Shown here: positions 2,383-63,797 of the stretch, piece after piece
How positions within the stretch are numbered: the stretch's first letter is position 1
How the letters are laid out: every line of letters begins with the position of its first letter
DNA from: Escherichia coli
GTDB taxonomy: Bacteria > Pseudomonadota > Gammaproteobacteria > Enterobacterales > Enterobacteriaceae
Assembly (NCBI RefSeq): GCF_048403405.1
Contig: NZ_CP183129.1
DNA length: 64,000 bases
Strand: one strand, 5' to 3'
The notes under the pieces: generated by a model
What the model was told of the DNA's origin: nothing
Database searches by the model: none
The model's input: the letters and a program-made list of their open reading frames with translations, nothing else
Position numbers and translations under genes: made by a program

Positions 2383-3396
2383 ATGAATACTGAAGCCACG
2401 CACGACCAAAATGAAGCACTTACTACCGGCGCTCGCCTGCGTAATGCTCGCGAACAACTAGGACTTAGTCAGCAGGCCGTTGCCGAGCGACTTTGCCTGA
2501 AGGTTTCCACGGTACGCGACATTGAAGAAGATAAGGCACCCGCCGATCTTGCTTCAACATTCCTGCGCGGATATATCCGCTCTTATGCGCGTCTGGTACA
2601 TATTCCAGAAGAAGAACTGCTGCCAGGGCTGGAAAAGCAGGCTCCACTTCGGGCTGCAAAAGTTGCGCCGATGCAGAGTTTTTCCCTCGGTAAACGCCGC
2701 AAAAAACGCGACGGCTGGCTGATGACCTTCACCTGGCTGGTGTTGTTTGTGGTTATCGGCCTGAGCGGTGCCTGGTGGTGGCAAGACCACAAAGCTCAGC
2801 AGGAAGAGATCACCACTATGGCCGATCAATCTTCGGCGGAATTGAGCAGTAATAGCGAGCAGGGGCAGAGTGTTCCGTTAAATACGTCGACAACTACAGA
2901 CCCGGCTACAACGTCCACGCCGCCAGCGTCTGTGGATACTACCGCAACCAACACGCAAACACCTGCCGTAACTGCGCCAGCACCAGCTGTTGATCCGCAA
3001 CAGAATGCGGTTGTTTCGCCTTCGCAGGCAAATGTTGATACCGCCGCGACCCCGGCACCAACGGCAACAACAACGCCAGATGGTGCTGCGCCGTTGCCAA
3101 CCGATCAGGCTGGCGTGACCACGCCGGCGGCTGATCCGAATGCGCTGGTGATGAACTTTACTGCCGATTGCTGGCTGGAGGTCACTGATGCTACCGGTAA
3201 AAAACTGTTTAGCGGGATGCAGCGTAAAGACGGTAATTTGAATTTAACCGGCCAGGCACCGTATAAACTGAAAATTGGTGCGCCAGCCGCAGTACAGATC
3301 CAGTATCAAGGGAAACCTGTCGATCTGAGTCGTTTTATCAGAACTAACCAGGTTGCGCGTCTGACCCTCAATGCCGAACAATCACCGGCGCAGTAA
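2383..3396 (+). CDS. rodZ: cytoskeleton protein RodZ
   Basis: 337-aa ORF; N-terminal HTH, TM segment, Pro/Thr-rich linker; matches E. coli RodZ N-terminus. Confidence 0.9.
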
Positions 3397-3422
3397 CAGA
3401 CGGGTAACGCGGGAGATTTTTC

Positions 3423-4541
3423 ATGCATAACCAGGCTCCAATTCAACGTAGAAAATCAACACGTATTTACGTTGGGAATGTGCCGATTGGCGATGGTGCT
3501 CCCATCGCCGTACAGTCCATGACCAATACGCGTACGACAGACGTCGAAGCAACGGTCAATCAAATCAAGGCGTTGGAACGTGTTGGCGCTGATATCGTCC
3601 GTGTCTCAGTACCGACGATGGACGCGGCAGAAGCGTTCAAACTCATCAAACAGCAGGTTAACGTGCCGCTGGTGGCTGACATCCACTTCGACTATCGCAT
3701 TGCGCTGAAAGTAGCGGAATACGGCGTCGATTGTCTGCGTATTAACCCTGGCAATATCGGTAATGAAGAGCGTATTCGCATGGTGGTTGACTGTGCGCGC
3801 GATAAAAACATTCCGATCCGTATTGGCGTTAACGCCGGATCGCTGGAAAAAGATCTGCAAGAAAAGTATGGCGAACCGACGCCGCAGGCGTTGCTGGAAT
3901 CCGCCATGCGTCATGTTGATCATCTCGATCGCTTGAACTTCGATCAGTTCAAAGTCAGCGTGAAAGCGTCAGACGTCTTCCTCGCTGTTGAGTCTTATCG
4001 TTTGCTGGCAAAACAGATCGATCAGCCGCTGCATCTGGGTATCACAGAAGCCGGTGGTGCGCGCAGCGGGGCGGTTAAATCCGCCATTGGTTTAGGTCTG
4101 CTGCTGTCTGAAGGCATTGGCGACACGCTGCGCGTATCGCTGGCGGCCGATCCGGTTGAAGAGATCAAAGTCGGTTTCGATATTTTGAAATCGCTACGTA
4201 TCCGTTCGCGCGGGATCAACTTCATTGCCTGCCCGACCTGTTCGCGTCAGGAGTTTGATGTTATCGGTACGGTTAACGCGTTGGAGCAACGCCTGGAAGA
4301 TATCATCACTCCAATGGACGTTTCGATTATCGGCTGCGTGGTGAATGGCCCAGGTGAGGCGCTGGTTTCTACACTCGGCGTCACCGGCGGTAACAAGAAA
4401 AGCGGCCTCTATGAAGATGGCGTGCGCAAAGACCGTCTGGACAACAACGATATGATCGACCAGTTGGAAGCACGCATTCGTGCGAAAGCCAGTCAGCTGG
4501 ACGAAGCGCGTCGAATTGACGTTCAGCAGGTTGAAAAATAA
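3423..4541 (+). CDS. ispG: 4-hydroxy-3-methylbut-2-en-1-yl diphosphate synthase (IspG/GcpE)
   Basis: 372-aa [26 protein letters not shown]...; C-terminal CPTCSR Fe-S motif. Confidence 0.95.
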
Positions 4542-4651
4542 TAACGTGATGGGAAGCGCCTCGCTTCCCGTGTATGATTGACCCCGCATGGCTCCCGAAA
4601 CATTGAGGGAAGCATTGAGGGTTCATTTTTATATTCAGAAAGAGAATAAAC

Positions 4652-25992: not shown

Positions 25993-26105
25993 ATGTATTC
26001 ATTTCTATTCACTCTACACCATATTTTTCGGCGGTACAGGTGACGGTATTACCTTAAAGGTATACTCTCATACCGTCATGAAAATGGTTTCTATACGGGT
26101 GAATT

Positions 26106-31204: not shown

Positions 31205-31789
31205 TTATTGTTTGTTTTTTTCGTTCTGGTTGATGACAAATTCAATGTAACTTTCGATCTTTGCTTTCTCGGTTTCGGGTAACAATGCGTAGCGCGAGCG
31301 GTCATAGTTGATAGTCGCAGGGTCGTGCGGGTGAATCAGTAATTCATAGCCATGACGCCCGAATGCGGATGCAACATTCTCCAGGGTGGAAATGGAAACG
31401 CTGACCTCATTGTTTAACAGGCGGCTGATTGTCACCTGGGCGACGCCGGATGCGCGGTGTAGTTTTCCCTGCGTTGAAAGGTCGCGGCTTTCGCTCATCC
31501 AGCGTTCCAGGTTGTGAGCAGCCAGCTGACCTATATCACTCGGGCCGACAGGCTGAAAACCTTCCTGAGAAAGCGAGCGATCGATATCAAGCCAGTTACG
31601 GGGTTTATTGGCGGCAGCTTCAATTTTTCGCGCAACCTGGTCGCCGATAACCTTCTTGCCAAGAGCCCAGCGGTTTACCAGATTTGCCTGAGTTCCAAGT
31701 TTTTCTGCCATCCGCGTCTGAACACCATTGAATTCACGGTCGATCAAGTCGTTGAGATTTTGCCTGCGGACGTCCTGGATACTTTTCAT
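31205..31789 (-). CDS. prophage repressor candidate, tandem HTH (XRE-type), no LexA-like peptidase domain
   Basis: 194-aa ORF divergent from cro-like gene; two HTH-like segments (TRMAEKLGTQANLVNRWALGKK and ASGVAQVTISRLLNNE); no Ser-Lys autocleavage domain recognisable. Confidence 0.65.
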   Translation of the reverse strand: MKSIQDVRRQNLNDLIDREFNGVQTRMAEKLGTQANLVNRWALGKKVIGDQVARKIEAAANKPRNWLDIDRSLSQEGFQPVGPSDIGQLAAHNLERWMSESRDLSTQGKLHRASGVAQVTISRLLNNEVSVSISTLENVASAFGRHGYELLIHPHDPATINYDRSRYALLPETEKAKIESYIEFVINQNEKNKQ

Positions 31790-40702: not shown

Positions 40703-40779
40703 TGGCGTGGCATGCAGGATTCGAACCTGCGACCAACCGCTTAGAAGGCGGTTGCTCTGTCCAACTGAGCTAATGCCAC
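40703..40779 (-). tRNA. tRNA-Arg (anticodon UCU), phage-encoded, CCA end encoded
   Basis: Reverse complement GTGGCATTAGCTCAGTTGGACAGAGCAACCGCCTTCTAAGCGGTTGGTCGCAGGTTCGAATCCTGCATGCCACGCCA folds as cloverleaf; anticodon loop CTTCTAA; T-arm GGTTCGAATCC; close to E. coli argU. Confidence 0.85.
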
Positions 40780-50422: not shown

Positions 50423-53169
50423 TGCCTGTTGTTCCTACTACATCCGGACGTCAGGTGCAAAGTCGTGGTGTGCAAACCGGTGGTTTTCAGATCTTCGATG
50501 TTCCTCAAGCAGATCAGGTGCTGGCGAATGTCGCAGATCAGTATGCGGTGGCATATGGTGAAGCCAGGCAGAAAGCGAATGTTGCTATGGCCCAGGAGGC
50601 GTTACTGCAATTTAACCAATTTGCAGATGACCAGATTAACAACCCTGAAAGTGGGCTGATTTCTAAACAGGGTAAAAACGCTCTTGGTCAGAGTGACGCT
50701 GTTATGAAAAATATGCAGGAAAGGGCTCAGGCATTATTAGGCTCAATTCCTGAAAGTGAGGAAAGGAATAAATTATCCTTTCAACTCCAGCAGTCTATGC
50801 AGTCTTATTACAATCAGGCACGTCGATATGAAGTTGGGCAGTTTCAGCAATTCCAAGATCAAACGTATTTGTCAGGAAATGCATTGGCTGTCACTCAGTC
50901 TGCGGGGCTATATAGCGATAACCAAGCATTTGTCGATTTAGCCAAGCAGCGATTTGAATCTATTGATCAATACGCTGATGCGCATGGGCTTCCTGATGAG
51001 TGGCGTGTTCAGCAGAAAACTCAGCTCAAGGAACAAATGGGGCAGCAAGCATGGATAGGAAATATCGCTCAAAAATACAACGAGTTTCTTCAGGTTAATG
51101 GAGAGCCAGGGGATCTTGATGGTGTGAGTCGTGCAATATCACATGGTAATTCATTGGATGCTCGTGGTTTACGTAATAATAACCCTGGTAATATTGAAGC
51201 GAGCAAATCTAACCCGTGGGAAGGTCAGATCGGTAGCGATGGACGTTTTGCAACGTTTGCTACCCCTGAGCATGGAATCCGCGCGTTGGGTAAAAATATG
51301 TTGTCTTACCAGCGTCAAGGCTATGACACCGTTAGCGAGATTGTTAATCGCTATGCTCCGGCTAGTGATGGTAATAATACTGATGCTTATATTAGGGCAT
51401 TGTGTGGTGAGCTTGGTGTTGGGGAGAATGATCAGCTTGATATCTCTAACCCAAAGACACTAGCTGCTTTATGTGCTGGGATTATTAAACACGAAAATGG
51501 CAGTATGCCTTATAGCACCGAACAGCTTGAAACTGGTATCTCGGCAGCCCTTGGTCTAACTAACCTTGATTCACCTAAGCGTTATACAGGCAATGCGGCA
51601 TTTGATGCTATGAGCCCTCAAATGCAAATACAGGCATTGAGGCAGGCTAATGAGCTGAGAAATCAGTACCGCCAGCAGTATGCGGACCAGCTTAGCACCG
51701 TAGTTAAAGATGCATATTCAGCCCTTGATGAAGGATTGAAACCTGAGAAGTTACCTTCTGAGGACGATTTTATCCGGGCCAATGGTCCGCGCATTGGCGC
51801 TATGAAGTGGAAGGATATGCAGGCGCAGATACAATATGGAGGTGTCATTGGTGCCGCTAAAGACCTCACTCCAGAAGGACGACAAGACATTCTTGAACGT
51901 TTACGTCCACAGGATCCAAACGCTCCTGGATTTGCAGCTAACCAGCAACGCTGGGAGAAAATGCAGGCCAAATTTAAAGAGATGGATAGGGAGTGGGAGA
52001 TTCAGCAGGGAAGAAACAGGTTCGTGTCTTCAATGCAAAATAACTTCCCGCTGGACCCGAACGACAAAAACAATCAGGCAGCGGTAGACCGTTATTTCGC
52101 GCAGGATATCGCGCCTTCGTTTTCCATATCTGATCCGCAGAGCATCAATACACTGGTCACCGTCACAACTAAAAGCGGCATGATACCAACTCAGGTTAAA
52201 ACAATGCTTAACAGTGGAGCAACATCAAGAGATCCTGCGCTGGTTGTCCCGATGGCAAAATTCTACGGTCAGTTATTCGATAATAATCCGGCGGCAGCGG
52301 CAACACTTGATAAAAGTACGATGGCATTTTACGGCAAGGTTTACGATTATTCCCGCGCTGGCGTGCCGGAGGATAAGGCTGTTGATATGGCTTACAGCCA
52401 GGTGTTCCAACAGGATGACCGAATGAAACAGATGCTTTCCACTGCCATGCGAGACAAAAAATATGTCGCGGCGAGGGCAACTGCTGCACAAAATAACGCC
52501 AGCAGTCTGACTTCCTTTGGTTCGTGGTCTCCGGATATTACCGATCCAGGAAAATCAAATGCGGCCTATCAGCGAGATTACCAGACAATTTACGATGCTA
52601 ACTTTGTACAGACAGGTGGCGATGCAGAACAGGCTGAGAAAATGACCAATGCCATGATCAGAACCACCTGGGGAGTTTCTACGGTTAATGGCAAAGCAGA
52701 GGTTATGAAGTATGCACCTGAGGCATTGTACGGAGTAAATAATGGTGCTGGTAACTGGATACAGGGGCAGTGGGAGCAGGAAAAACGCGAGCTTAAATCA
52801 AAATCCTTTGGCGGTCCTCGCAGTGATACGGACTTAATACTTGTTTCTGATGGCCTTACGGCAAGGGATAGGAGTTATGCTGTTATGGTTTTACAGCCTG
52901 ACGCAAACGGAGCGATAGAACCGAGAAATTATATTGGAGAAAATGGTCTCCCTGTTCGTTTCAAGCCGGATCAGCTGACATCTCCAATGTACAGGCAAAC
53001 CATTAAGTTCCAGCAACAGCGTGTTGATGAGGCTAGAGTGCGGAGAGAAGGCAATCCGCTGCCGCAGTTCAGCAATAAAGATGGATATACTCCTCCAGAT
53101 CTGACCAAACCATTCGGTTATGGTTCAGCCAATTACCTTCCGAGCAATATATACGCAGGGGGCAAATAA
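50422..53169 (+). CDS. internal virion/ejection protein (gp15-like)
   Basis: 915-aa ORF in the core-protein position; contains a conserved-looking segment GLRNNNPGNIEASKSNPWEGQ...GIRALGKNM. Confidence 0.5.
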   Translation: MPVVPTTSGRQVQSRGVQTGGFQIFDVPQADQVLANVADQYAVAYGEARQKANVAMAQEALLQFNQFADDQINNPESGLISKQGKNALGQSDAVMKNMQERAQALLGSIPESEERNKLSFQLQQSMQSYYNQARRYEVGQFQQFQDQTYLSGNALAVTQSAGLYSDNQAFVDLAKQRFESIDQYADAHGLPDEWRVQQKTQLKEQMGQQAWIGNIAQKYNEFLQVNGEPGDLDGVSRAISHGNSLDARGLRNNNPGNIEASKSNPWEGQIGSDGRFATFATPEHGIRALGKNMLSYQRQGYDTVSEIVNRYAPASDGNNTDAYIRALCGELGVGENDQLDISNPKTLAALCAGIIKHENGSMPYSTEQLETGISAALGLTNLDSPKRYTGNAAFDAMSPQMQIQALRQANELRNQYRQQYADQLSTVVKDAYSALDEGLKPEKLPSEDDFIRANGPRIGAMKWKDMQAQIQYGGVIGAAKDLTPEGRQDILERLRPQDPNAPGFAANQQRWEKMQAKFKEMDREWEIQQGRNRFVSSMQNNFPLDPNDKNNQAAVDRYFAQDIAPSFSISDPQSINTLVTVTTKSGMIPTQVKTMLNSGATSRDPALVVPMAKFYGQLFDNNPAAAATLDKSTMAFYGKVYDYSRAGVPEDKAVDMAYSQVFQQDDRMKQMLSTAMRDKKYVAARATAAQNNASSLTSFGSWSPDITDPGKSNAAYQRDYQTIYDANFVQTGGDAEQAEKMTNAMIRTTWGVSTVNGKAEVMKYAPEALYGVNNGAGNWIQGQWEQEKRELKSKSFGGPRSDTDLILVSDGLTARDRSYAVMVLQPDANGAIEPRNYIGENGLPVRFKPDQLTSPMYRQTIKFQQQRVDEARVRREGNPLPQFSNKDGYTPPDLTKPFGYGSANYLPSNIYAGGK

Positions 53170-56100
53170 TGCCGATATATGAACAGGATCCTAAAGAGTT
53201 GCTTGGCGAGGATATTCAGCAAATAGCAGCACCTGATGACAGTAATTTCTATATGGAAACACCTTCTTTGCTTTCTGCTGTGAACCCATTTACCAGTGAT
53301 CAACGCGTTCAAAGGTCTAGACAAGCAGCATTTCGTATAGATAACACGCTGGGTAGCTTTATTGCCAGTGCTCCTTTCAGTCAGTTTGACAGGGTTGAAG
53401 GATATAACCCATTTGATAACGATGCAGCAGATATTAAAGGCTATGAAGATTTTGCAGATTCGTTTATCAACTCCGGTTCGCATGAAGAAACAATGGCAAT
53501 TAAACATCGAATCGATCAGCAGAGAGCTGACATGGAATACAATTCAGGCTTGGGATTTGCTGGTACAGTCTCTTCTGTAGCAATGAGATTAGCAGATCCA
53601 TTCAATGCGATTTCTATGTTTATTCCGTTCGGCGCTGTCGTTCGTGGCGGTCGTATTGCAGAAACAGCCGGACGTTTTGCTTTAGCCAATGCTGCTGGCA
53701 GTGTTGCTTCAGAGGCCGCATTGCAGGCCACTCAGGAAGCTCGCTCACCGATGGAGAGCGTATCGAACGTTGTTGTTGATGCTCTCGTTGGTGGGATCCT
53801 TGGTGCTGGTGCACAGCTACTTGCTGGACCTAGCGCGCGCGAGGCAGTGGTTAACTCAGTAGGTAATCATTTGCGAGGTATGGATTCTCCTCAAAGCATT
53901 GGTGCAGCTCAGGTTTTCAATACCACACTCGATCAGGAACAGCTTGCTGGACTTGGACTTGCTAACAAAACGTTGAGTGTCACTCCTGCTGGCCGCTTGG
54001 CGCAATCACCATCTCTTGTTTCCCGTCAGATTAACCAGCAGCTTGCCGAAAATAACTATTTCTTCGCCAAAAATGATGAGGGGTTGGCTACGTTTACGGC
54101 AGTCGAGACTAAGATTAAGCAATACGACGCCATGCTTTATAAGCAGATGGAAGCTACTCGTGATGCTTACCAGCAGTACAGCAAATCTGTCAGCGCCCGC
54201 GGCGTGAAGAGGATGAACTTTATTGATTTCAATGAAGCTGTTGGCATGGCTATGCGCCGTGGTGATCAGAGTGATATTCCTGAGGTTTCACAAGCAGCCG
54301 CCAGAATCCGCCCCATTTTTGAGACCACAAAAGCCCGTATGCAGGAATTGGGGATCCTTCCTGAGGATATCGATGTCGTGACGACGAAGAGTTATCTTCC
54401 CCGCATTTATAAGTTCGATAAGATACTTTCCGACCGCACTGAATTCAGAGGGCGAATTGCCAACTGGATACAAGGGATTAGTGCCAAAGGTGCTGACAAA
54501 GCAGGTCAGCGAATTGAAAAGATAAATTCATTGCTAAAAACTGCAGAGGAATCAGCACCGCGCGCTGATGCTCTCGCTAGTGAAATCGCTGAAGCGGAGA
54601 AATGGTCTGGTAAAAAAATTCTACTCATGGAAGAACTGGATAAACGAAATAAGCTTATATCTCAGGAGACTGACACACAGGCGCGTCTTACAAGAATAGA
54701 AAAAGAGTTGGCCGAGACTTCATCAGAAAAACTTCAGGCAAGAATGATGAAAGAAAGCTCTGACCTTAAAACACGCCTTGATGATATAGCGCAGGCAAAG
54801 AGTGAGCTTCCTGTCTATCAGCGCCATATGGAGTTGCTGGATAATCCACGGAAATATCGTTCTGAGCTTCGCCGACTGCAAAAACGGGCAAATTCAACCA
54901 CAAGGCTGAATGCAAGCCGCGAGCGAGCACTGAAGCAGATGGAGCCTCTATCCCGAGAGGAAGCAGAGGACGCTGCTGACGAGATCGTGAATAAAATAAT
55001 AGGCGCACCTTCCGGGCTTGTACCAGCCGATATTATCCCAGAGAGACTCGTTGGTCGGGCTGGTTTCACTAAAAGCCGAACGCTGCTTATTCCTGATGAG
55101 CGTATAGAAGATTTTCTTGAATCAGATGTTAACTACATCATGGAAAGTTATCTCCGGCAGGTGGCACCAGAAATTGAGCTGACTGCGCAGTTTGGCCGTA
55201 AAGATATGGGGGAGCAAATCCGTCAGGTTAGTGAGGAATATACCCGGCTAATAAAAGAGGCTAAAACACCTAAACGACGTGCAGCTCTTGAGAAGCAACG
55301 GGAGGCTGATATTAGGGATATTACGGCTATGCGTGACCGACTGCTTGGTACTTACGGCGCACCTCAAGATCCACGCAGTTTCTTTGTTCGTGCCGGGCGA
55401 GTTGCTAGGAATATTAACTTCCTCCGTTTGCTTGGTGGAATGACCGTCTCCGCTGCAACTGATCTGATGCGACCGATGATGCAGCATGGCCTGAGAAAAT
55501 CTCTCGGACCAATGGTAAGCATGCTTAAAAATATGGACTCAGTGAAAATTGCAACCAGGGATTTGCGAGAAATGGCAGTTGGGCTTGATTATGTCCTGTC
55601 TACGCGCACAAAGGCTATAGCGGATCTTACTGACCCCTATAGCCGGAGAAGCGCCGCTGAGCGAGGTCTGAACTGGATGACGCAGAAATTCGGTAACTGG
55701 ACGCTGATGAATCAGTGGAACAGCGCACTTAAATCATGGTCTGGGATGATAGTGCAGTCGAGGATACTTGACGCGGCTCGCCAAGTTTCTGCTGGTGGCA
55801 CGCTCTCCAAAAGTGAAATGCGGAAGATGGCACAGGTCGGCATCAATGAAGATGTTCTGCGCCGAATCGGGGAGCAATTCGGGAAGCACGGAGAGGATAT
55901 GGACGGGCTGTTAACCGGGCATAGTCATCTGTGGGATGACCGTTTCGCTAGAGAGATTTTCCAGTCTGCAGTGCTGAAAGATGTAGACTCAGTGATTGTA
56001 ACGCCTGGCGTAGGTGATACACCGCTGTTTTTTAGTAAAGAAGGCTGGAAGATGATCACGCAGTTCAAAACGTTTATCTTCGCACAGCATAACAGGGTGC

Positions 56101-56558
56101 TAGTATCTGGTATCCAGCAGGGCGATGCTGCATTCTATCTTGGTGCGCTTGGCACGATTGCGCTTGGCTCAATGGTCTATATGATGAAACAGAAGTTAAG
56201 CGGTCGCGATATCGACTACAGCTGGAATAACCTTGTGAAAGAGGGGATCGACCGGGGCGGAATGCTTGGCTGGCTCTCTGAGCCGCTGAATACCGTTGAG
56301 AACATAAGCGGCGGTAGGTTTGGTCTTGGCGCGATGTTTGGTGCGCCTCCGGTATCAAGGTTTCAGAGTCGTAATGCTATTGGTGCTTTACTTGGTCCTA
56401 CCTTTGATCTTGGCGGTGATGCCGCGACGGTTGCAAATGGTGTACTTAACGGAGAATTTGACAGCCAGCAAACCCACGCTGTCCGTAAAATGCTACCTTT
56501 TCAGAATCTGTGGGCGATATCACCATTACTAAATAAAGTTGAAGAGCAGATGAAATAG
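53169..56558 (+). CDS. internal virion/ejection protein (gp16-like)
   Basis: 1129-aa ORF, largest core protein, precedes tailspike region. Confidence 0.5.
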   Translation: MPIYEQDPKELLGEDIQQIAAPDDSNFYMETPSLLSAVNPFTSDQRVQRSRQAAFRIDNTLGSFIASAPFSQFDRVEGYNPFDNDAADIKGYEDFADSFINSGSHEETMAIKHRIDQQRADMEYNSGLGFAGTVSSVAMRLADPFNAISMFIPFGAVVRGGRIAETAGRFALANAAGSVASEAALQATQEARSPMESVSNVVVDALVGGILGAGAQLLAGPSAREAVVNSVGNHLRGMDSPQSIGAAQVFNTTLDQEQLAGLGLANKTLSVTPAGRLAQSPSLVSRQINQQLAENNYFFAKNDEGLATFTAVETKIKQYDAMLYKQMEATRDAYQQYSKSVSARGVKRMNFIDFNEAVGMAMRRGDQSDIPEVSQAAARIRPIFETTKARMQELGILPEDIDVVTTKSYLPRIYKFDKILSDRTEFRGRIANWIQGISAKGADKAGQRIEKINSLLKTAEESAPRADALASEIAEAEKWSGKKILLMEELDKRNKLISQETDTQARLTRIEKELAETSSEKLQARMMKESSDLKTRLDDIAQAKSELPVYQRHMELLDNPRKYRSELRRLQKRANSTTRLNASRERALKQMEPLSREEAEDAADEIVNKIIGAPSGLVPADIIPERLVGRAGFTKSRTLLIPDERIEDFLESDVNYIMESYLRQVAPEIELTAQFGRKDMGEQIRQVSEEYTRLIKEAKTPKRRAALEKQREADIRDITAMRDRLLGTYGAPQDPRSFFVRAGRVARNINFLRLLGGMTVSAATDLMRPMMQHGLRKSLGPMVSMLKNMDSVKIATRDLREMAVGLDYVLSTRTKAIADLTDPYSRRSAAERGLNWMTQKFGNWTLMNQWNSALKSWSGMIVQSRILDAARQVSAGGTLSKSEMRKMAQVGINEDVLRRIGEQFGKHGEDMDGLLTGHSHLWDDRFAREIFQSAVLKDVDSVIVTPGVGDTPLFFSKEGWKMITQFKTFIFAQHNRVLVSGIQQGDAAFYLGALGTIALGSMVYMMKQKLSGRDIDYSWNNLVKEGIDRGGMLGWLSEPLNTVENISGGRFGLGAMFGAPPVSRFQSRNAIGALLGPTFDLGGDAATVANGVLNGEFDSQQTHAVRKMLPFQNLWAISPLLNKVEEQMK

Positions 56559-56559: not shown

Positions 56560-57411
56560 ATGAAAAAAATAAATTTGTTTTTTGGCATAGTGCTTTCAAT
56601 AGTCTCTGTAAATCCTACAGCTGCCAGTTCATTGCAATGCAATAAGGATAACTTTGATGCATGCAAAACGTGCGAACAATTATCAAAGGCTATCGACTTA
56701 AAAGAACCTAATCGTGGCGATTACTATAGAGGGGCTTTATGGAATGGGCTTTACGCCTCTTATGTAATTAATTGCCCTGTGGTTGCAGAGAAGTTACTGA
56801 GCCATGGTGCTATACCATCATATGGCGGATATATGGGGTCTATGGGGGCGGTTCTGACAGGAAAATGGCCTCATAACAATGAATCAATAAATCTTTCATG
56901 GGCAGATTTGCTTATAAAACATGGATTTGATGTTAATAGGCATACGGGGAATTATAAATCAGCTACTGAAGTATGGGCTATAGATAAAAAACAGATTGAA
57001 TATAAGTCAGTTTTTGACAAGTTAATTCAATCCAGCGAAGTAAAACCACTCGATCCTTCAAGAAATTTAGAATGGTGTGCGTCTGAAGGGTATCGCTCAG
57101 TTGTCGTTTATTCCCTTAACTCATGTATAGAAAATGCTATAAAACGTTTGGATGACGGTGTTTCTTCAGCGTCTGATATTTCATCAGCAGCCGTAAATTC
57201 CTGTACTAGCGATGTAGAAAATTTCAATAAGCATTTGGCATGCAAAGCAGCTGTTAAAGAAAACTCTGATAAAGAGAGAAGCAACGTTTACCAGTTATTA
57301 ACCAGTGATAGTCAAATGAATAAAAATGTTATTGATATGCTGAAGGAAAGAAATATTGAAACGGTTCTTGAATTTAGAGCTGAAAATCGATCAGCGAAAA
57401 CTGCACAGTGA
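56560..57411 (+). CDS. secreted moron protein, low GC, possible ankyrin-like repeats
   Basis: 283-aa ORF with signal peptide MKKINLFFGIVLSIVSVNPTAAS; markedly AT-rich relative to flanking late genes; weak ankyrin-like segments (VAEKLLSHGA, ADLLIKHGFDVN). Confidence 0.55.
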   Translation: MKKINLFFGIVLSIVSVNPTAASSLQCNKDNFDACKTCEQLSKAIDLKEPNRGDYYRGALWNGLYASYVINCPVVAEKLLSHGAIPSYGGYMGSMGAVLTGKWPHNNESINLSWADLLIKHGFDVNRHTGNYKSATEVWAIDKKQIEYKSVFDKLIQSSEVKPLDPSRNLEWCASEGYRSVVVYSLNSCIENAIKRLDDGVSSASDISSAAVNSCTSDVENFNKHLACKAAVKENSDKERSNVYQLLTSDSQMNKNVIDMLKERNIETVLEFRAENRSAKTAQ

Positions 57412-57418
57412 TCAAACA

Positions 57419-57442
57419 GGCCGCTTTCGCGGCCTTGTTTTT
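57419..57442. terminator. terminator hairpin (ggccgctttcgcggcc + T-run), copy 1
   Basis: ggccgctttcgcggcc followed by ttgttttt; identical hairpin recurs at 60670. Confidence 0.7.
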
Positions 57443-57601
57443 AACGAATGCCACCGCCGCCAGGGCGGGAATCCGCAGAACGCCCACCGCAGCGGGAGCC
57501 GTCAGCGGCAGTATCGCTGTCGTGCTGACAACGACCGGCAAAGGCCTGAGTTGAAGCTACCAGAGACAACAAAACGAACAGTGCAGCAAATGCTTTTTTC
57601 A
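57441..57601 (-). CDS. small secreted peptide (hypothetical)
   Basis: 53-aa ORF MKKAFAALFVLLSLVASTQA... with signal peptide; short, weak RBS. Confidence 0.3.
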
Positions 57602-57673
57602 TTGTGAAATTTCCATCTATAAGCCACCTCAATGTGGCGTCAATGAGTGTAGCACTGACTTTTGTTTCGTCCA

Positions 57674-57697
57674 CAAAAAAGCCCGCAGCGCGGGCTT
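57674..57697 (-). terminator. rho-independent terminator after small membrane protein gene
   Basis: agcccgc-agc-gcgggct hairpin with A-run on + strand (U-tract on - strand). Confidence 0.6.
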
Positions 57698-57929
57698 ACT
57701 TTTCTTCAGGTTTGTTGTCTTCAGATTTCTTCTTGATGCTTGGTTTTTGTCTAAGACCGAAAATACCAGCCACTGCAACAACTGTACCGATCACTGTGCC
57801 AGCTAGAACTTCATGACCTGTTAAACCTAATAATGTTGCACAAGCTACTGTAAAAATAGTTGCACTCAGGCCAAACCACTGCCCACGTTTATCTCTATTA
57901 ATAGCCCCGTCAAGTGCCTTTTCCTCCAT
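57696..57929 (-). CDS. small two-TM membrane protein
   Basis: 77-aa ORF; hydrophobic segments WFGLSATIFTVACATLLGL and VIGTVVAVAGIFGL; Lys-rich C-terminus. Confidence 0.45.
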   Translation of the reverse strand: MEEKALDGAINRDKRGQWFGLSATIFTVACATLLGLTGHEVLAGTVIGTVVAVAGIFGLRQKPSIKKKSEDNKPEEK

Positions 57930-58169
57930 TTTCTGGCGGTGAGCAAACTCCTTCTCCGTCAGCTGGAAGATGCGTTCGGGGGCATCAGGTAAAATATCCT
58001 GATACCCGCGAAGCAGATAGGGGGAGGAAGCGGACCCTGAAACGCATGGTGAGCGACAACTATCTCCTGAATTTCAGGGCGATCAAGAACTCTTGTGAAG
58101 GCATCTGGGTGTTGAATGATCTCGTTACTTAGCCCTTCCTCAACTTCCTCGAACTCAGTTTCTTCGTTA

Positions 58170-58496
58170 TCACTTGGTTGCCCAATAGATTTTTGCATAT
58201 TTGTCGAAGGACATTCCTTTAGCTTCTGGTTTTCCTCTTGCATTTGAGTTTTTCCCTGTCACTATTGCCCATTTTCCGCCAGCAGGCGCTGCAATTTTTT
58301 TTCCGTTCTTTACTATATATTCAGCATAAACACGATTTTCTGACCGTCTGAGATCGTCTCCGACCATATTCATGTCTCTTGATATAACTTTGACGACAGA
58401 GTCTCGGTTTAAAGCCTTGGCATAGTTGGAGCCAGGAACGATACCCAAAGGGGTGCCAGACTCTATAGCCAGCTCCTTGACATATCTTCTGCTCAT
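58170..58496 (-). CDS. hypothetical protein (possible small DNA-binding protein)
   Basis: 108-aa ORF from ATG 58496 (MSRRYVKELAIESG...); a perfect TTACC-N5-GGTAA site lies 22 bp upstream. Confidence 0.4.
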   Translation of the reverse strand: MSRRYVKELAIESGTPLGIVPGSNYAKALNRDSVVKVISRDMNMVGDDLRRSENRVYAEYIVKNGKKIAAPAGGKWAIVTGKNSNARGKPEAKGMSFDKYAKIYWATK

Positions 58497-58517
58497 ATGA
58501 ACCTCAACCAATCGACT

Positions 58518-58532
58518 TTACCAATCGGGTAA
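58518..58532. promoter_or_regulatory. perfect TTACC-N5-GGTAA palindrome
   Basis: TTACCAATCGGGTAA upstream of the 58496 gene. Confidence 0.5.
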
Positions 58533-58617
58533 TTTTAAACATGAGTATAATGCTTTTAACTGCAACGAGTGTAAACAATTATTGATAATTGTAGGCACAT
58601 CCCTGTGCCGCCGCCCG

Positions 58618-59310
58618 TCAGAAGAACCCTGCTTTGTCGTTGATGTACTCCGCGTGCGTCTGGATATCACGCAGGCATTTGCTCACACCGACGATGTAGC
58701 AGAACATGGTGGTCAACTCCGCCGCCGCGCCCGATACGTCGTGCCCGTCTTCCTGTAACTGGTTTAGCAGATTCATCAGCAGTGAGTTCTCCGTCAGGCC
58801 GAGAACACCAGACGGCGAATGAATCAGGCTGCGGTAGCCGGGCTTCAGTGGGGCGCTGTAGGTTTTGTTCTCTACCTTCATTGCCTGCATCACTGCTGAT
58901 GCTGTGGCGTTGGCTACCTGGTCGGCAACCATCTTTATGCGTTCTTCCTGCGGGAGCGAGTTTTTAATGTAACTTCCGGTGCGGCGGATCTGAGGAAGAA
59001 CCTCACCTGTAACCCATTCAAGAAATCTGAATGCTCTCGTTCCCTCAGTCATTGCCTCTTTGCAACGCAGAATAAGGATGTAGAGACCTGATTCTGAAAC
59101 GATGGATAGTTCTTGTATTCCACCAGGGGTCTGTATTGAATACAGCCCCTTTTTGTTCCAGCCTTTTTTATCAAGTTTTCTCGCTTGTGTAACATCAATA
59201 TTCAAAGCATTGCACACATCTTTGGTGACAAACCAAGGTTCTCCGTCAATCATGAACATACGGATCTGGCAGGATGACTCAAAGGAAAAGATGGAAGGTT
59301 TGGTATTCAT
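58618..59310 (-). CDS. antirepressor, Bro-N domain plus C-terminal antirepressor domain
   Basis: N-terminus MNTKPSIFSFESSCQIRMFMIDGEPWFVTKDVCNALNI is a Bro-N/KilA-N-type signature; C-terminal domain has a paralog at 60693-60950. Confidence 0.7.
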   Translation of the reverse strand: MNTKPSIFSFESSCQIRMFMIDGEPWFVTKDVCNALNIDVTQARKLDKKGWNKKGLYSIQTPGGIQELSIVSESGLYILILRCKEAMTEGTRAFRFLEWVTGEVLPQIRRTGSYIKNSLPQEERIKMVADQVANATASAVMQAMKVENKTYSAPLKPGYRSLIHSPSGVLGLTENSLLMNLLNQLQEDGHDVSGAAAELTTMFCYIVGVSKCLRDIQTHAEYINDKAGFF

Positions 59311-59577
59311 AGCGATCACCTTTGTAGTTAGGTTAATCACCACCGCTGAGACCAATCAGATGGTGGTGAACTGTGCAGAGTTGGTCTTACCGGCTACAAA
59401 GGAACCCGGCGCACCTTTCGGTGCCCCCACACAGCCCACCATAGAATAGGTGCGCTTTACACATAAAAAAACCGCTTATGCGGCATATGTGCCTCTGTAG
59501 TAATCCGGGAGACCAATCCCGGCACTGGATTTTGCCAGTGCCCGATTACTATGGCACAAGAGGAGTGCAATGTAAAT

Positions 59578-59592
59578 TTACCGAAAAGGTAA
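59578..59592. promoter_or_regulatory. perfect TTACC-N5-GGTAA palindrome about 270 bp upstream of antirepressor
   Basis: TTACCGAAAAGGTAA. Confidence 0.5.
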
Positions 59593-59753
59593 TAATAAAT
59601 GCATAACTCACGTTATTTCAACCCTATATGGTTTGATTTATCCCATTTCAGAAAATACCTGCCTATTTTTTTGCCAGTATGCGTATACTTTCGATAGAAT
59701 GTTTACCCTAGAGGTAGTTGGGGGTGCCCGTGAACACGAAGAGAGCTACAGTA

Positions 59754-60173
59754 ATGCAGCATTTGAGGAAATCAGAAAAAAATAAAGACCATGAAATATT
59801 GAGTAAGGCCATTGTTCGGGCTTCCAATAATACTGTTATACCTCATGCTGAAGAGTCTGGACAGAAATTTCTTATTCGGTATTTCACTGAAAATAGTGCA
59901 GTTGAGGAGATTTTAAAACATCAGGGAGGGGAATTTAAATGTGGAAAACTGGCAGATTATGTTCGTCGTGAAACGTCTGAACAAGAAGTATATTATGCTG
60001 ATATTAATCATAAGTCAGGTGTGAAAATTGTAATAGGCTATTACACAACTCCCAAAAATGTTATGCATGAGGTCCCAAAGATGTCCGTCGAGAAATCTCA
60101 TGCAATCTCGCGCAGGATGTTTGCACGCACTGCCGAAGATATGGCTCAGGAGCTCTACGACGATGCTGAATAA
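59754..60173 (+). CDS. hypothetical protein, candidate partner of YafO-like toxin
   Basis: About 140 aa from ATG 59754; stop overlaps the start of the downstream gene (ATGCTGAATAA); low GC. Confidence 0.5.
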   Translation: MQHLRKSEKNKDHEILSKAIVRASNNTVIPHAEESGQKFLIRYFTENSAVEEILKHQGGEFKCGKLADYVRRETSEQEVYYADINHKSGVKIVIGYYTTPKNVMHEVPKMSVEKSHAISRRMFARTAEDMAQELYDDAE

Positions 60174-60668
60174 ATTCCAGGGGTTGGTTCACCCTGGAAT
60201 TTTTGGGAAGGACCCTGAGCTAATACCTATCAAAAACGCGTTCATAGATCACTGGCGCTACGGTCATCATAAGGATTTCGGAAAGGACACTCTGTTTCGG
60301 GATCCACCGAAAGAAATGCTGGAATATCACATACGCCACGTTCACGTAAACATCGGAAACTATACTGACAAGTTTGGTGAGAGCGGTACGGACAATGCTG
60401 GAAAAACTGGGCGTCTGGGAAGAAAGACAAGACCACTAACAAGCATAAAAAGATCCCAACCAGTGACGTGTATGTGATTTATCTGGTCACATCTGAACGC
60501 CATGCCTTCCTTCTGGATTATTGGGATGAACCAGCACATAAGACAGTAGAAATTGACGAGCAGAAGCAAAAATTAGTTGTCGAGTGTGACAGAATTTTGC
60601 GGCTGAAAAAGTTAGAATCCATGCCGCGCGATGCTAGTTTGTGGGACCCAGAATTTTACGACTGTTAA
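60163..60668 (+). pseudogene. YafO-like toxin gene interrupted by a frameshift (or sequencing error)
   Basis: N-terminal part in one frame (to 60477: ...FGKDTLFRDPPKEMLEYHIRHVHV) and C-terminal part in another (60381-60668: ...VYVIYLVTSERHAFLLDYWDEPAHK) both resemble E. coli YafO as I recall it; frames overlap 60381-60477. Confidence 0.45.
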
Positions 60669-60669
60669 T

Positions 60670-60694
60670 GGCCGCTTTCGCGGCCTTTAAATTT
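60670..60694. terminator. terminator hairpin (ggccgctttcgcggcc), copy 2
   Basis: Identical 16-bp hairpin to 57419-57434, followed by tttaaattt. Confidence 0.65.
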
Positions 60695-60950
60695 ACCGGG
60701 TTTGTTTTCGTAATTGTTCGGCACAATAGTCGAGATGTGTTTGCAGATCCCGCATAGACATCTGTGAGCTGGTGACGTAGTTAATCAGTGCAGTCAGTTC
60801 GGCAAGTGGGCCATCGACATTAAATCCATCCTTATCGAGATCCCGGAGTAATTTCATCAAGTGCGATCCCTCCACCAGTGACCTGACGCCTCCCGGCGTG
60901 TGAATCCTTTCGGTAAATCCGTCTTCCAGTGGATAGTGATACTGCTGCAT
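60693..60950 (-). CDS. free-standing antirepressor C-terminal-domain paralog
   Basis: About 85 aa from internal ATG (MQQYHYPLEDG...); shares L..LL..L..DG..V.G..AELT.....Y.......RD.QTH..Y pattern with the C-terminus of the 58618-59310 antirepressor. Confidence 0.5.
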   Translation of the reverse strand: MQQYHYPLEDGFTERIHTPGGVRSLVEGSHLMKLLRDLDKDGFNVDGPLAELTALINYVTSSQMSMRDLQTHLDYCAEQLRKQTR

Positions 60951-61026
60951 CTTATCTTCTCCATGCAATAACTGTATGTTTATACAGTAACAAATAATTT
61001 GTTTGCTATCCAGCACGTTTTGCAAA

Positions 61027-61041
61027 TTACCTGAAAGGTAA
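61027..61041. promoter_or_regulatory. perfect TTACC-N5-GGTAA palindrome between ant-C paralog and tailspike
   Basis: TTACCTGAAAGGTAA; ATGTGGTT motif at 61074-61081. Confidence 0.5.
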
Positions 61042-61145
61042 TATCTATTCGTATTTACAGCCTTTCTATCCATATGTGGTTTTTCAGGTAATAGAATAAC
61101 CAGATATGCGGCGCAACGGGTGCTGCGACTATCTGGAGATTTAAC

Positions 61146-63797
61146 ATGACGGTCTCAACCGAAGTTGACCACAACGAATACACTGGTAACGGAGCTACGA
61201 CATCATTTCCGTATACCTTCCGTATTTTCAAAAAATCCGACCTGGTTGTTCAGGTGTCTGACCTGAACGGGAACGTAACAGAATTGGTTCTGGATACTGA
61301 CTACACAGTAACCAATGCTGGAGGATATAATGGCGGTAATGTAATTCTGTCGAAGGCGTTGGCTAACGGTTATCATATTTCTATATCACGAGAGCTCCCG
61401 GTTACGCAGGATACTGATTTGCGTAATCAGGGTAAGTTCTTCGCTGAGGTACATGAAGACGCGTTCGATAAACTGACAATGCTTATTCAAAAGTGTTTTT
61501 CATGGATGAGGTTAGCACTTATAAAACCAAGCATTCTGGCTAACTATTATGATGCAAAAAATAATAAGATATCAAATCTAGCAAATGCCACTGACAGAAA
61601 CGATGCTGTCAATAAAGGTTATGTTGATGATCTTTTTACTGGAGGTGTAACGCCTACACCTAACAGCGTTAAAAACGATATTTTTACAAATCACCAAAGA
61701 AAGATTGTAGCTACGATGCCGCTTCTTTTTCCTGAATATGATGCGATTATGGCTGCTAACCCGTCAGCAACTTATATGTATCCTCAAGGATTCTGCGTTA
61801 GCGAAGATTTGATATACATCACTTATCCATTTGAGCCTAAACAGACGAATAATGTCGTCGCAGTATTTAACATATCTGGTATTTATCAAGGTTATTTCTA
61901 TGTTCAGGCTGGCGGCCCAGGCTTCGCTGCTGAAGGAATCGTGGTTACGTCAGACTATGGCCCCAAAAAAATGTTTGTTGGTCACACAAACGGAATACTG
62001 CGTGAATTTAATATGGAGGGGGCATTATACGGAAGCAATCTGCCTCTTGTACAAAACCATGATGTTGGATTATTCAACCAGTTCAGCTACAGAAGAGGTA
62101 TATGGCTCGTTGAGCAGAATGCGCCAGAAGTAGGACAGAAAATCACAAGAACTGTACTTGCAGTGTTCGACAGTGGTTTCAATCGCCTGTCAACTATAAC
62201 GCTGCCGTTACATGATGTTGGGTATGTAACTAAAAGCACCTCACCTTATGCGCCTTATTTCAACAAGCGTCAGGGTATTGCGGTAGGTGATAACTACTTT
62301 GTCTGCGGCTATGGCGGCTTCATAGCTGATGGGGCAGGAAGCGCAGGATATAACGAATATCAGGGCAGCAAAGTTTTTAACCCTGACGGTACAAAGCGAA
62401 CTGAATCAATGCTTCATCCTCAGGCCATGATGGATTTAATGAAAGCCGCAGGATTGAACGTCACTCGCATAGAAAATGAAGGCGTTTGTGTTTCTCAGGA
62501 TGGAAAATCCATTTATTCACTTTACATTCATCAGGAAAGAACTGGCTCTGAACCTTACAATTCAGGTTTGGTTATTTTCGAAGATTTCTCCACTGATAAA
62601 GATGCTATCGATTTTACACCTGCATCCAGGCTTTACCGCGGATTTGATATCGATCACGCGAGCATTGGGGTATATCCCCGTAGTGCGAAGGGGATTGTTA
62701 ACCCTGTAGATGGTACGTTGTTCACTAACATGACTGAAATTCTTCGCTATATGCAGGAGATGAGTCAGAAGGCATTTAATTTTTACACAGGGACTGTCAG
62801 CATTGCTGATATATCTGGCGTGGCAATCCCTTCCAGCACATATGTTGAAATACTGAATGCGAATAATCAGACTTTTATAGTCAACTATTATTCATCTGAT
62901 AGTGGTATTAGTTATTTGGTTGCAACTAATCCTTCTGGTGACTTTGTATTTGTGCGCCAGCGACCGGCACAGTGGGCATCTAACTTAACCATTCAGCAAA
63001 ACGCAGATCCTGATACAAACCAATTAAACCGCATCACTGCATCATCATATGCCGGTGCAACTACAAACTCTCAGAAAATATTGGTCCTTGACCAGCAGGC
63101 TACAGCTAGCGCAAATAGCTTGGTATTGGGCGGTAGTTCTTCTGTGTTTAGGTCTGCCACCACGGTGGATATTGCATGCAACAGCGACCCGACAGCATTG
63201 GGAGGAACCATACGCTGGCGGTTTTATGATACAGGTCTTCGCCCGTTTGCTGACAATACCTATAATTTTGGTCAGGCATCGTTTCGTATTAAAGACGCCT
63301 ACTTTGCAAATGCCCCAACCGTTTCATCAGATGCCACGCTGAAAACCAATCCCGAGGCAATATCAGATTTAAGTGAAATGCTTTCTTCTGATAGAGACAG
63401 CATTCTTGATGCCTGGGGCGATATTTCTGTTGTGGCGTATCGATGGCTCGACGCTATATCCATGAAGGGCGATGGTGCCAGATGGCATTTTGGCGTCATG
63501 GCTCAGCAGGTAAGGGATGTATTCTTGGCGCACGGAATTGATGGAACCAGATTTGGCCTTCTTTGCTATGACGAGTGGGATGATATTTTTGAGCCGGTAA
63601 TCGCGACTAAAGAGATTACCGATACGTCTGGTGAGTTGGTCACCGTCGAATATGACACCGGAGAACAGAGGCTGGTTAAAAAAGCGGGTAGTTCATGGGG
63701 TATACGGCCTGACCAGTGCGCTTGGCTTGAGGCTGCATATCAGCGCCGTCGATGCGATCGTATTGAAGAGCGACTCGAACTATTGGAATCAAAATAA
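61146..63797 (+). CDS. tailspike/tail fiber with N-terminal podovirus adaptor domain and C-terminal intramolecular chaperone (peptidase S74-like) domain
   Basis: 883-aa ORF; N-terminus resembles T7 gp17 N-terminal domain pattern; C-terminal ~130 aa resemble self-cleaving chaperone domains of endosialidase-type tailspikes. Confidence 0.8.
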   Translation: MTVSTEVDHNEYTGNGATTSFPYTFRIFKKSDLVVQVSDLNGNVTELVLDTDYTVTNAGGYNGGNVILSKALANGYHISISRELPVTQDTDLRNQGKFFAEVHEDAFDKLTMLIQKCFSWMRLALIKPSILANYYDAKNNKISNLANATDRNDAVNKGYVDDLFTGGVTPTPNSVKNDIFTNHQRKIVATMPLLFPEYDAIMAANPSATYMYPQGFCVSEDLIYITYPFEPKQTNNVVAVFNISGIYQGYFYVQAGGPGFAAEGIVVTSDYGPKKMFVGHTNGILREFNMEGALYGSNLPLVQNHDVGLFNQFSYRRGIWLVEQNAPEVGQKITRTVLAVFDSGFNRLSTITLPLHDVGYVTKSTSPYAPYFNKRQGIAVGDNYFVCGYGGFIADGAGSAGYNEYQGSKVFNPDGTKRTESMLHPQAMMDLMKAAGLNVTRIENEGVCVSQDGKSIYSLYIHQERTGSEPYNSGLVIFEDFSTDKDAIDFTPASRLYRGFDIDHASIGVYPRSAKGIVNPVDGTLFTNMTEILRYMQEMSQKAFNFYTGTVSIADISGVAIPSSTYVEILNANNQTFIVNYYSSDSGISYLVATNPSGDFVFVRQRPAQWASNLTIQQNADPDTNQLNRITASSYAGATTNSQKILVLDQQATASANSLVLGGSSSVFRSATTVDIACNSDPTALGGTIRWRFYDTGLRPFADNTYNFGQASFRIKDAYFANAPTVSSDATLKTNPEAISDLSEMLSSDRDSILDAWGDISVVAYRWLDAISMKGDGARWHFGVMAQQVRDVFLAHGIDGTRFGLLCYDEWDDIFEPVIATKEITDTSGELVTVEYDTGEQRLVKKAGSSWGIRPDQCAWLEAAYQRRRCDRIEERLELLESK

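Follow-up and report, generated by a model that had tools for sequence, protein, structure and literature searches.

Positions 56560-61145 of a 64-kb stretch of Escherichia coli DNA (the window, by which the whole analysed stretch is meant) very probably represent the secondary-immunity region, in other words the antirepressor or immI-like region, of an epsilon15/phiV10-like Uetakevirus prophage residing at guaA. Eight protein genes of this block, here called A to H from left to right, are considered, and two of them, E and H, are predicted to encode antirepressors which would act on the repressor (Rep) of the same prophage. The region is built of parts that have already been described, namely the Rep-Ant pair of SPC32H, the C4 RNA of P1, IsrK of Gifsy-1 and the operators of epsilon15. 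At the same time, the antirepressor stretch doubles as the main cargo hotspot of this phage group, in which cargo genes occupy three slots, and most of the inserted cargo is, as judged from its promoter regions, wired to the repressor operator rather than free-running. These statements are drawn from homologies, matches to RNA families, complementarity and its covariation, positions of operators and of a LexA box, and the variability of the island among relatives.

From 49.8 to 64 kb, the window covers the late end of the prophage of a temperate podovirus, in which the genes for a T7 gp14-like core protein, a transglycosylase-type internal protein of 915 amino acids (aa) and a DUF919 internal virion protein (1129 aa, 53169-56558) are followed directly by the block and then directly by the tailspike gene (61146-63797). 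The presence of a 4.6-kb block of mixed gene orientation between a core-protein gene and the tailspike gene, pointed out in an initial annotation of the window, is thus borne out. Phage EC.W1-9 and over 20 complete E. coli genomes match the block with 99.5% identity, and parts of it are also found in phiV10, TL-2011b, ZX5 and other Uetakevirus members. The map of the prophage at guaA is taken from the near-identical prophage of Ecol_881, which as a whole adjoins guaA and carries integrase, repressor and replication genes and a lysis cassette. The initial annotation had also supposed that a tail fibre gene normally comes right after the core gene, an arrangement found in none of the epsilon15-like phages examined. 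P22 keeps sieA and immI (mnt-arc-ant) at the equivalent place.

Two predicted antirepressor genes and their proposed control

Gene H (60693-60950, minus strand; 85 aa) is predicted to encode an antirepressor Ant of the SPC32H/epsilon15 gp19 type. Its residues 2-84 align to residues 3-85 of PDB chain 5d50_E, which is named 'Anti-repressor protein' (E = 1.4e-46); the protein is 83% identical to gp19 of epsilon15 and belongs to phrog_450, and its gene adjoins the tailspike gene in every relative checked. As for the repressor, the one encoded in the window (31205-31789, minus strand) matches 5d50_A, the repressor chain of the same structure, with E = 4e-42 and is 42% identical to the epsilon15 repressor. 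The Ant tetramer is described to bind two Rep dimers and to break the Rep tetramer (summary in PMC9638917). Two regulatory elements are recognised in front of H. A perfect LexA box, CTGTATGTTTATACAG (CTGT-N8-ACAG, 60972-60987), begins 37 nucleotides (nt) upstream of the start codon and a predicted Rep operator begins 91 nt upstream of it, and both are kept at the same position in phiV10, TL-2011b, Ecol_881, IHE3034, epsilon15 and ZX5. The ant gene of SPC32H is reportedly under LexA control. In the mechanism proposed here, DNA damage would remove LexA from the promoter region of H, which carries both the LexA box and the Rep operator, and the Ant protein then made would bind Rep and break up its DNA-binding tetramer to bring about prophage induction. 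Public records mostly leave H as 'hypothetical protein' in spite of its match to a crystallised antirepressor at E = 1.4e-46.

Gene E (58618-59310, minus strand; 230 aa) would encode a second antirepressor, in which a Bro-N domain at the N-terminus is joined to an Ant-type repressor-binding domain at the C-terminus. The protein matches Pfam Bro-N (4.2e-13) as well as phrog_130 and others, labelled 'anti-repressor Ant', and its C-terminal domain matches PDB 5d50_E (E = 9e-14) and is 43% identical to H. E is also 80% identical to ORF4 of phage ZX5, overexpression of which lowered lysogeny and cut the prophage titre about 1000-fold (PMC9782041). The initial annotation held that none of the small proteins of the block could be assigned with confidence; this no longer applies to H, with its match to 5D50 (E = 1.4e-46), or to the Bro-N protein with its relative in ZX5, and is still true of A, B, D-C and F-G.

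How would expression of E be controlled? Its leader of 270 nt holds two RNA genes, both of which score above the gathering scores of Rfam. One is an IsrK-like small RNA (59465-59541, minus strand; RF01394, 74.7 bits against a gathering score of 50) with its own terminator, a hairpin at 59484-59471 on the minus strand followed by a U7 run. The other is a C4-like antisense RNA (59359-59446, minus strand), which matches RF01695 over its full length (1-87) with 78.6 bits against a gathering score of 45. Neither RNA gene had been noticed in the initial annotation, nor had the perfect LexA box in front of H. The proposed order of the operon is a promoter with a Rep operator, the IsrK-like RNA with its terminator, the C4-like RNA and E. 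All pairing elements lie on the minus strand. The two loops of C4 are a' (CCUUUGUAG, 59402-59394) and b' (AGACCAA, 59387-59381). Reading of the sequence reveals that a' is complementary to two targets, a2 (CUACAAAGG, 59327-59319) downstream of C4 and a1 (CUACAGAGG, 59500-59492) upstream of it, and that b' is likewise complementary to b2 (UUGGUCU, 59355-59349) downstream and b1 (UUGGUCU, 59516-59510) upstream. Both upstream targets lie inside IsrK, and the downstream pair spans 59319-59355, with a2 covering the Shine-Dalgarno sequence of E. Since b2 and a2 cover the ribosome-binding site of E, pairing of the C4 loops with them should block translation of E, and since b1 and a1 are possible partners of these loops too, the short IsrK transcript should compete for C4.

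The complementarity is also seen among natural variants of these elements. Site 'a' occurs either as CCUUUGUAG with CUACAAAGG or as CCUUUUAG with CUAAAAGG, and site 'b' either as AGACCAA with UUGGUCU or as ACGCCAA with UUGGCGU; three of the four possible combinations of a and b occur. The C4 loops agree with both downstream targets in every one of the 33 typed islands, and the IsrK targets agree as well wherever they are readable (28 of 28 islands). Calculated duplex energies are -26 to -28 kcal/mol for cognate and -19 to -21 kcal/mol for non-cognate pairs, a difference of about 7 kcal/mol. The IsrK-C4 tandem precedes an antirepressor gene in phiV10, TL-2011b, IHE3034, a Klebsiella phage and Enterobacter phage Tyrion, and five relatives, which belong to three genera, have a copy of the operator 33-36 nt in front of isrK. 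From these lines of evidence we regard E as a predicted second antirepressor under control of C4 and IsrK RNAs. It is to be noted that public records carry protein or miscellaneous features on top of the IsrK/C4 genes, such as an 'ash family protein' in ZX5 (L013, 1779-1892) and a feature 'similar to SF0880' in phiV10 (L002, 5834-5901).

The third element of the circuit is the palindrome TTACC-N5-GGTAA, which is interpreted as the operator of the prophage repressor. Ten perfect copies are found in the window, all of them inside the prophage, against 0.01 expected by chance. Three lie in the block, as had been counted initially. TTACCAATCGGGTAA (58518-58532) is located just 3' of the -10 element of a leftward promoter for D and C (58532-58575); TTACCTTTTCGGTAA (59592-59578, minus strand) abuts the -10 element of the promoter of the isrK-C4-E operon (TTGAAA-18-TATTAT, 59621-59592, minus strand), with which it makes a unit at 59578-59621; and TTACCTGAAAGGTAA (61027-61041) lies between the divergent H and tailspike genes. 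In addition, a promoter-like site in front of F and G (TTGCCA-18-TAGAAT) is followed by a one-mismatch copy, TTACCCTAGAGGTAG (59703-59717), the two together occupying 59671-59717 on the plus strand. The island copies thus sit at promoters and not at the ends of genes. Further perfect copies are at 31071, 31133, 31845, 34133, 34195, 37957 and 41102, and one-mismatch sites elsewhere in the prophage are at 26049, 31893, 32230 and 37975. Two of the palindromes flank a leftward promoter just past the 3' end of the repressor gene, a position like that of OL, and one perfect and one one-mismatch palindrome lie between the repressor gene and a cro-like gene, a position like that of OR. Others precede the integrase gene, a RuvC-like gene and the terminase gene, and one is in the tRNA region. 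In the GenBank record of epsilon15, ATTACC-N5-GGTAAT sites are labelled 'protein_bind' for the repressor in lysogeny, including one in the intergenic region between gp19 and the tail fibre gene. Terminators were considered for these palindromes and rejected, because they have no T-run, are placed at or just after -10 elements, have OL- and OR-like copies and are annotated as repressor sites in epsilon15.

Since an operator is found at the promoters of three units and a one-mismatch copy at that of a fourth, the D-C, E and H units, and F-G via its one-mismatch copy, are predicted to be off in a lysogen through repression by Rep. The initial idea that the cargo of this block is expressed in the lysogen therefore becomes doubtful for these four units. 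As a distribution over the whole prophage, the dispersed operators are more like the many C1 operators of phage P1 than a lambda-type pair of OL and OR. A separate motif, ATGTGGTT(TTT), occurs at 34182, 41158 and 61072, in each case 2-7 nt before a TTACC or GGTAA half-site; the three copies are in rightward intergenic regions, one of which is just upstream of the tailspike gene. This motif may be part of a phage promoter or a second protein-binding site, and the record of epsilon15 annotates an IHF site at the equivalent place.

A cargo hotspot with three slots

To what extent is the content of this region shared among relatives? For a survey, 80 IMG/VR loci with an H at least 98% identical were collected, and 73 of these allowed the stretch between the core gene and H to be measured. 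Together with the window, these represent 68 distinct islands of 199-5186 bp (median 2957 bp), in which about 69 families of open reading frames (ORFs) are found; some of the families are spurious, being ORFs called over RNA genes. Families 2, 16 and 20 are such simple ORF calls on top of the IsrK/C4 genes. Among named relatives, the islands range from that of PAS61 (0.65 kb) to that of TL-2011b (5.9 kb). The expectation of a cargo hotspot that varies among related prophages is confirmed by these numbers. Among the kinds of genes that had been listed from the sequence, those for two secreted proteins (A and the 53-aa B), for a Bro-N protein (E) and for an antirepressor C-domain paralogue (H), as well as the F-G pair, are present in this copy. 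The island of TL-2011b also contains P22-type arc-sar-ant genes (L003, 2769-6110; Rfam sar, 44.8 bits), which are located beside isrK-C4-Bro-N in the island slot, and in the same phage an SPC32H-type ant adjoins the tailspike gene.

The first slot is the end of the late operon, before its terminator, and is filled in 53 of the 68 islands. All seven families found in it carry an N-terminal signal peptide, a lipobox or a transmembrane segment; thus this slot would almost always receive an envelope-targeted protein. In the window it is occupied by A (56560-57411, plus strand; 283 aa), which starts 1 nt after the stop codon of the DUF919 gene and is therefore the last gene of the late operon. A has a Sec-type signal peptide, a putative ankyrin-repeat-like N-terminal domain and a helical C-terminal domain. 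It belongs to phrog_6118 and has no match in Pfam, NCBIfam, PADLOC or, by sequence, PDB. The AlphaFold2 model of A has a predicted local distance difference test score (pLDDT) of 90, and Foldseek against PDB finds designed repeat proteins of the DARPin type and ARC domains of tankyrase with a probability of about 0.99, a weak match in view of E values of 0.02 or more and a template modelling score of about 0.5 on the target. Relatives of A in the AlphaFold database bear the name of ankyrin-repeat proteins (one from Morganella with 42% identity, E = 2e-21). The N-terminal domain is widespread in the form of secreted proteins or lipoproteins of about 160 aa, and the C-terminal domain is found in only two other clusters at 50% identity.

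The second slot is supposed to lie behind the conserved promoter with a Rep operator and is occupied here by D, by the DUF2335 gene C and then by B. D (58170-58496, minus strand; 108 aa, phrog_10654) comes first in the D-C operon, extends past the start of C and has no Pfam match. C (57696-58243, minus strand) encodes, when intact, a DUF2335 membrane protein of 182 aa with C-terminal transmembrane helices; the Pfam match (PF10097, E = 3.4e-15) was obtained on the intact homologue of Ecol_881. In the window the gene is split into ORFs of 94 and 77 aa, so that the 'acidic' ORF (57959-58243) and the ORF with two transmembrane segments (57696-57929) of the initial annotation turn out to be the halves of one frameshifted gene. 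B (57441-57602, minus strand; 53 aa) starts with a signal peptide, after which the mature part of about 31 aa is rich in Gly and includes two Cys residues. It belongs to phrog_14503 ('membrane associated protein, moron'), is publicly named 'transmembrane anchored protein' and is present in 41 of the 68 distinct islands. Upstream of B, a TTGACG-N17-TATAGA-like sequence can be read by eye, with no operator nearby. B therefore appears to have its own promoter and is the best candidate of the block for expression in the lysogen. In relatives, the same slot holds other genes, for example one for a 210-aa protein in IHE3034 and a different YafO-like pair in TL-2011b. The D-C-B cassette is found, together with its promoter and the perfect palindrome and with 89% identity, at the end of an unrelated prophage which has myovirus-type invertible tail-fibre genes and a Gin/Cin-type invertase. 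That cassette (L105-L109, at about 2660-3830 of the locus) was seen on E. coli chromosomes near mltF-tadA-yfhB-murR-like genes.

The third slot is read as the place divergent from the isrK promoter, where the YafO-like pair F-G is located. F (59730-60173, plus strand; 147 aa) is a putative antitoxin-like partner of G, and G (60163-60668, plus strand; 168 aa when intact) is distantly YafO-like and overlaps F by 11 nt; its frame is broken in the window. F-like and G-like (168-aa) genes are always adjacent with this 11-nt overlap and divergent from the antirepressor gene, in E. coli as well as in Klebsiella. The N-terminal part of about 110 aa is hypervariable in the F family and exists in at least three unrelated types, and the C-terminal 37 aa hardly vary; the variable part is a possible sensor or specificity region. 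F has no Pfam match and no meaningful PDB sequence match, and its AlphaFold2 model (pLDDT 52.7) is confident only for two C-terminal helices and was therefore not used for a fold search. That F might be a homologue of YafN was considered and rejected, as it is not similar to YafN.

Four hairpin terminators are found in the block. They are located at 57418-57435, where the hairpin ends the late operon and possibly also serves gene B on the other strand; at 57679-57697, where a bidirectional one follows C; at 60670-60685 after G, between the convergent genes G and H; and inside the Bro-N leader, where the IsrK terminator lies. Thus the initial impression that each gene has its own terminator does not hold. 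The hairpins after A (about 57418-57436) and after G (60670-60687) contain an identical 18-nt core, GGCCGCTTTCGCGGCCTT, and bracket 3.2 kb. This repeated core could serve as a recombination joint for exchange of modules.

With regard to base composition, the island as a whole has a GC content of 44.0%, to be compared with 48.0% for the DUF919 gene, 43.7% for the tailspike gene and 48.5% for the prophage. Clear AT-richness is seen only in A (37.0%) and F (39.4%), and B reaches 57%. The description of the block as a low-GC island is therefore right only for A and F. Acquisition of the block as a single low-GC piece was rejected, because its GC content is heterogeneous (37-57%) and because A, D-C-B and F-G occur independently of each other in relatives. 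In the adjoining tailspike gene, only the N-terminal part of about 115 codons is common to complete E. coli genomes at the DNA level, with matches that stop at about 61500, and the receptor-binding part matches phrog_1171; the prophage therefore seems to carry a rarer tailspike specificity on a common chassis. Elsewhere in the window, the host small RNA gene sroE (4541-4632, 108 bits) is in the chromosomal part, and a tRNA gene (40706-40779, minus strand) lies inside the prophage, the equivalent of which in Ecol_881 is annotated as tRNA-Arg.

Weighing the readings of the block

Several observations weigh against secondary immunity, or against parts of it. The c4-a1b1 model of Rfam (RF03163) gives 39.9 bits, below its gathering score of 46.7. 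The start codon of E (59310) comes 49 nt past the end of the C4 match (59359), and between the two no icd-like or orf45-like ORF is found, only an in-frame TTG extension of E; therefore, the step that couples C4 to the antirepressor would differ from those of P1 and Gifsy-1. The one-mismatch operator of F-G is kept in an E. coli locus (L014) and absent from two Klebsiella loci (L016 and L017). The 'repressor' sites in the epsilon15 record are the annotation of its depositor. Finally, because the D-C-B cassette is accompanied by the palindrome in an unrelated prophage, the site at 58518 might be bound by a protein encoded in the cassette itself, such as D.

Are C and G working genes in this copy? 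Alignment of C to L001 locates a 1-nt deletion in a run of G at about 58020-58024 (G6 to G5), and G has lost 1 nt at about 60391/60392, which gives ORFs of 139 and 66 aa. Both genes are intact in every close relative examined (C in L001 and L004-L006). It is rather unlikely that both frameshifts are errors of sequencing or assembly and that the island is in fact fully intact. Such an explanation would suit the deletion in C, since a G6 homopolymer is a typical site of sequencing errors, and at least one assembly that has the 94-aa product (L100) contains numerous further broken genes. On the other hand, the deletion in G is not in a long homopolymer, a comparison with Ecol_881 over 15 kb reveals only three indels, all in the island and none in the 10 kb of virion genes, and the exact 94-aa product is found on 15-17 public contigs, some of them from short-read assemblies with unbroken neighbouring genes. 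As the indels are confined to the island and the 94-aa product recurs, genuine frameshifts are more likely than errors, and the 1-nt deletions are presumed to inactivate C and G in this copy. The G5 allele of the DUF2335 gene recurs in islands with differing neighbour cargo (L100-L104), which suggests either repeated slippage in the homopolymer or spread of a dead allele by recombination. The state of G bears on another proposal, that F-G is a working type II toxin-antitoxin pair of the YafO kind, in which G would act as a ribosome-dependent mRNA interferase that is neutralised by F. Outside the immunity circuit, such a pair would serve to stabilise the prophage or to abort infection. We would give this proposal a little less than an even chance. 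NCBI's Prokaryotic Genome Annotation Pipeline (PGAP) labels G as a YafO-family toxin, and G is weakly and collinearly similar to YafO of K-12 (BLASTP E = 0.002; hhalign E = 0.005 over 110 columns); among the 14 sequences of the G family, one that is 66% identical carries a precomputed PF13957. The pair overlaps by 11 nt and is strictly syntenic in E. coli and Klebsiella prophages, and F, whose body is modelled as mostly disordered and whose C-terminus is a conserved helical hairpin that bears an acidic tail, would look like many antitoxins. However, intact G itself has no match in Pfam even at E <= 10, none in NCBIfam and no meaningful one in PDB by sequence, the probability given by hhalign is only 7%, and F is unrelated to YafN. 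G is frameshifted in the window, therefore no toxin can be made from this copy, and the constant divergence of F-G from the antirepressor promoter makes a regulatory role in immunity possible as well.

The initial annotation had favoured a different view of the whole block, that of autonomous morons which are expressed in the lysogen and together form an undescribed system of defence, anti-defence or superinfection exclusion. We consider this improbable. The hotspot is real, cargo directly after the core gene is envelope-targeted in seven of seven families as known exclusion proteins are, B has both a promoter-like sequence without an operator and a moron label in PHROGs, A and F are AT-rich, and two different YafO-like pairs recur as cargo; all of these are in line with such a system. 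However, a scan of the eight island proteins with the models of PADLOC-DB v2 gave no match for any of them, and the NCBIfam scan of the same eight proteins gave no match either. Among ten alternative cargo families from other islands, nine have no PADLOC match and the tenth has a marginal TIR-like one (E = 0.006). Furthermore, three units have an operator at the promoter and a fourth has a one-mismatch copy, for which repression in the lysogen is predicted; the conserved core of the region consists of the two antirepressors and their regulators; two cargo genes are frameshifted in this copy; and A, D-C-B and F-G occur independently, not as one system. It might be asked whether the operator-controlled cargo (D-DUF2335-B and the YafO-like pairs) is a 'repressor-loss alarm', which is silent while Rep is active. 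This is a long shot. If it were true, the alarm would fire upon inactivation of Rep, for instance when induction begins or when a superinfecting relative supplies its antirepressor, and would result in exclusion, abortive infection or host shut-off; it would represent an undescribed coupling of accessory toxin and membrane genes to the immunity state of a prophage.

Meaning and comparison with known systems

The prophage would have two antirepressors with one type of repressor-binding domain, one of them predicted to respond to DNA damage via LexA and the other gated by a P1-type antisense RNA with at least three specificity classes. Such a circuit would explain induction, and possibly cross-talk or heteroimmunity, among Uetakevirus prophages of E. 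coli, Klebsiella and Enterobacter. The knowledge of three cargo slots whose regulation can be predicted should be useful in mining prophages for exclusion and defence genes, because operator-controlled cargo is not to be assumed to be expressed in the lysogen. The analysis also flags errors in public annotation, namely ORFs over IsrK/C4 genes and H as 'hypothetical'.

Each part of the region can be compared with a system that has been described. The F-G pair is like YafN-YafO of E. coli K-12 in being an overlapping two-gene operon with the toxin-like gene second and in the motifs FG(K/R)D..L and H.H; it is unlike YafN-YafO in that G, with 168 aa against the 132 aa of YafO, fails the Pfam YafO model and is frameshifted here, and in that F is not YafN-like. 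P22, in which the order is 16, sieA, mnt, arc, ant with sar, and the tailspike gene 9, resembles the window in the position of this region between the last ejection or internal gene and the tailspike gene and in the combination of antirepressor control with exclusion or other cargo, and TL-2011b even has P22-type arc-sar-ant in the slot. In the window itself, no sar match, no Arc-like ORF and no Mnt were found, and control is predicted to depend, unlike in P22, on Rep operators, LexA and C4/IsrK RNAs.

The Rep-Ant pair of SPC32H (PDB 5D50 and 5D4Z) is recognised in the matches of H and of the repressor and in the LexA box, and the place of H next to the tailspike gene is that of gp19 in epsilon15. 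Unlike SPC32H and epsilon15, the prophage in the window has a second predicted Rep-binding protein, the Bro-N fusion E under RNA control; epsilon15 is without E. In the Gifsy-1 prophage of Salmonella (isrK-orf45-anrP-isrJ), an IsrK-family small RNA with its own terminator likewise lies upstream of an antirepressor gene, and the read-through transcript carries a processed RNA complementary to IsrK, processing that is inferred for the window; IsrK and the processed downstream RNA of Gifsy-1, STnc1160, are complementary (PMC4825925). Unlike Gifsy-1, the window is without orf45 and isrJ, and no counterpart of the consequence that involves the AntQ antiterminator was identified.

A further comparison is with the immI region of P1 and P7 (c4, icd, ant1/2 and the C1 operator Op51), a system in which C4 is freed from its precursor transcript by RNase P. 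Differences are that the window has no icd-like ORF, and therefore a2 covers the Shine-Dalgarno sequence of the antirepressor gene itself; that the antirepressor consists of Bro-N and an SPC32H-type domain; and that the element is an integrating podovirus, P1 being a plasmid myovirus. In P1, full repression of ant needs C1 plus C4 RNA (PMC8198154). The window resembles this arrangement in that an RNA of the C4 family is located on the antirepressor transcript, its loops match upstream and downstream pairs of targets, the latter over a ribosome-binding site, and a predicted operator of the main repressor is found at the promoter of the operon. The covarying variants of the C4 loops and their targets, in turn, resemble the heteroimmunity classes of P1 and P7.

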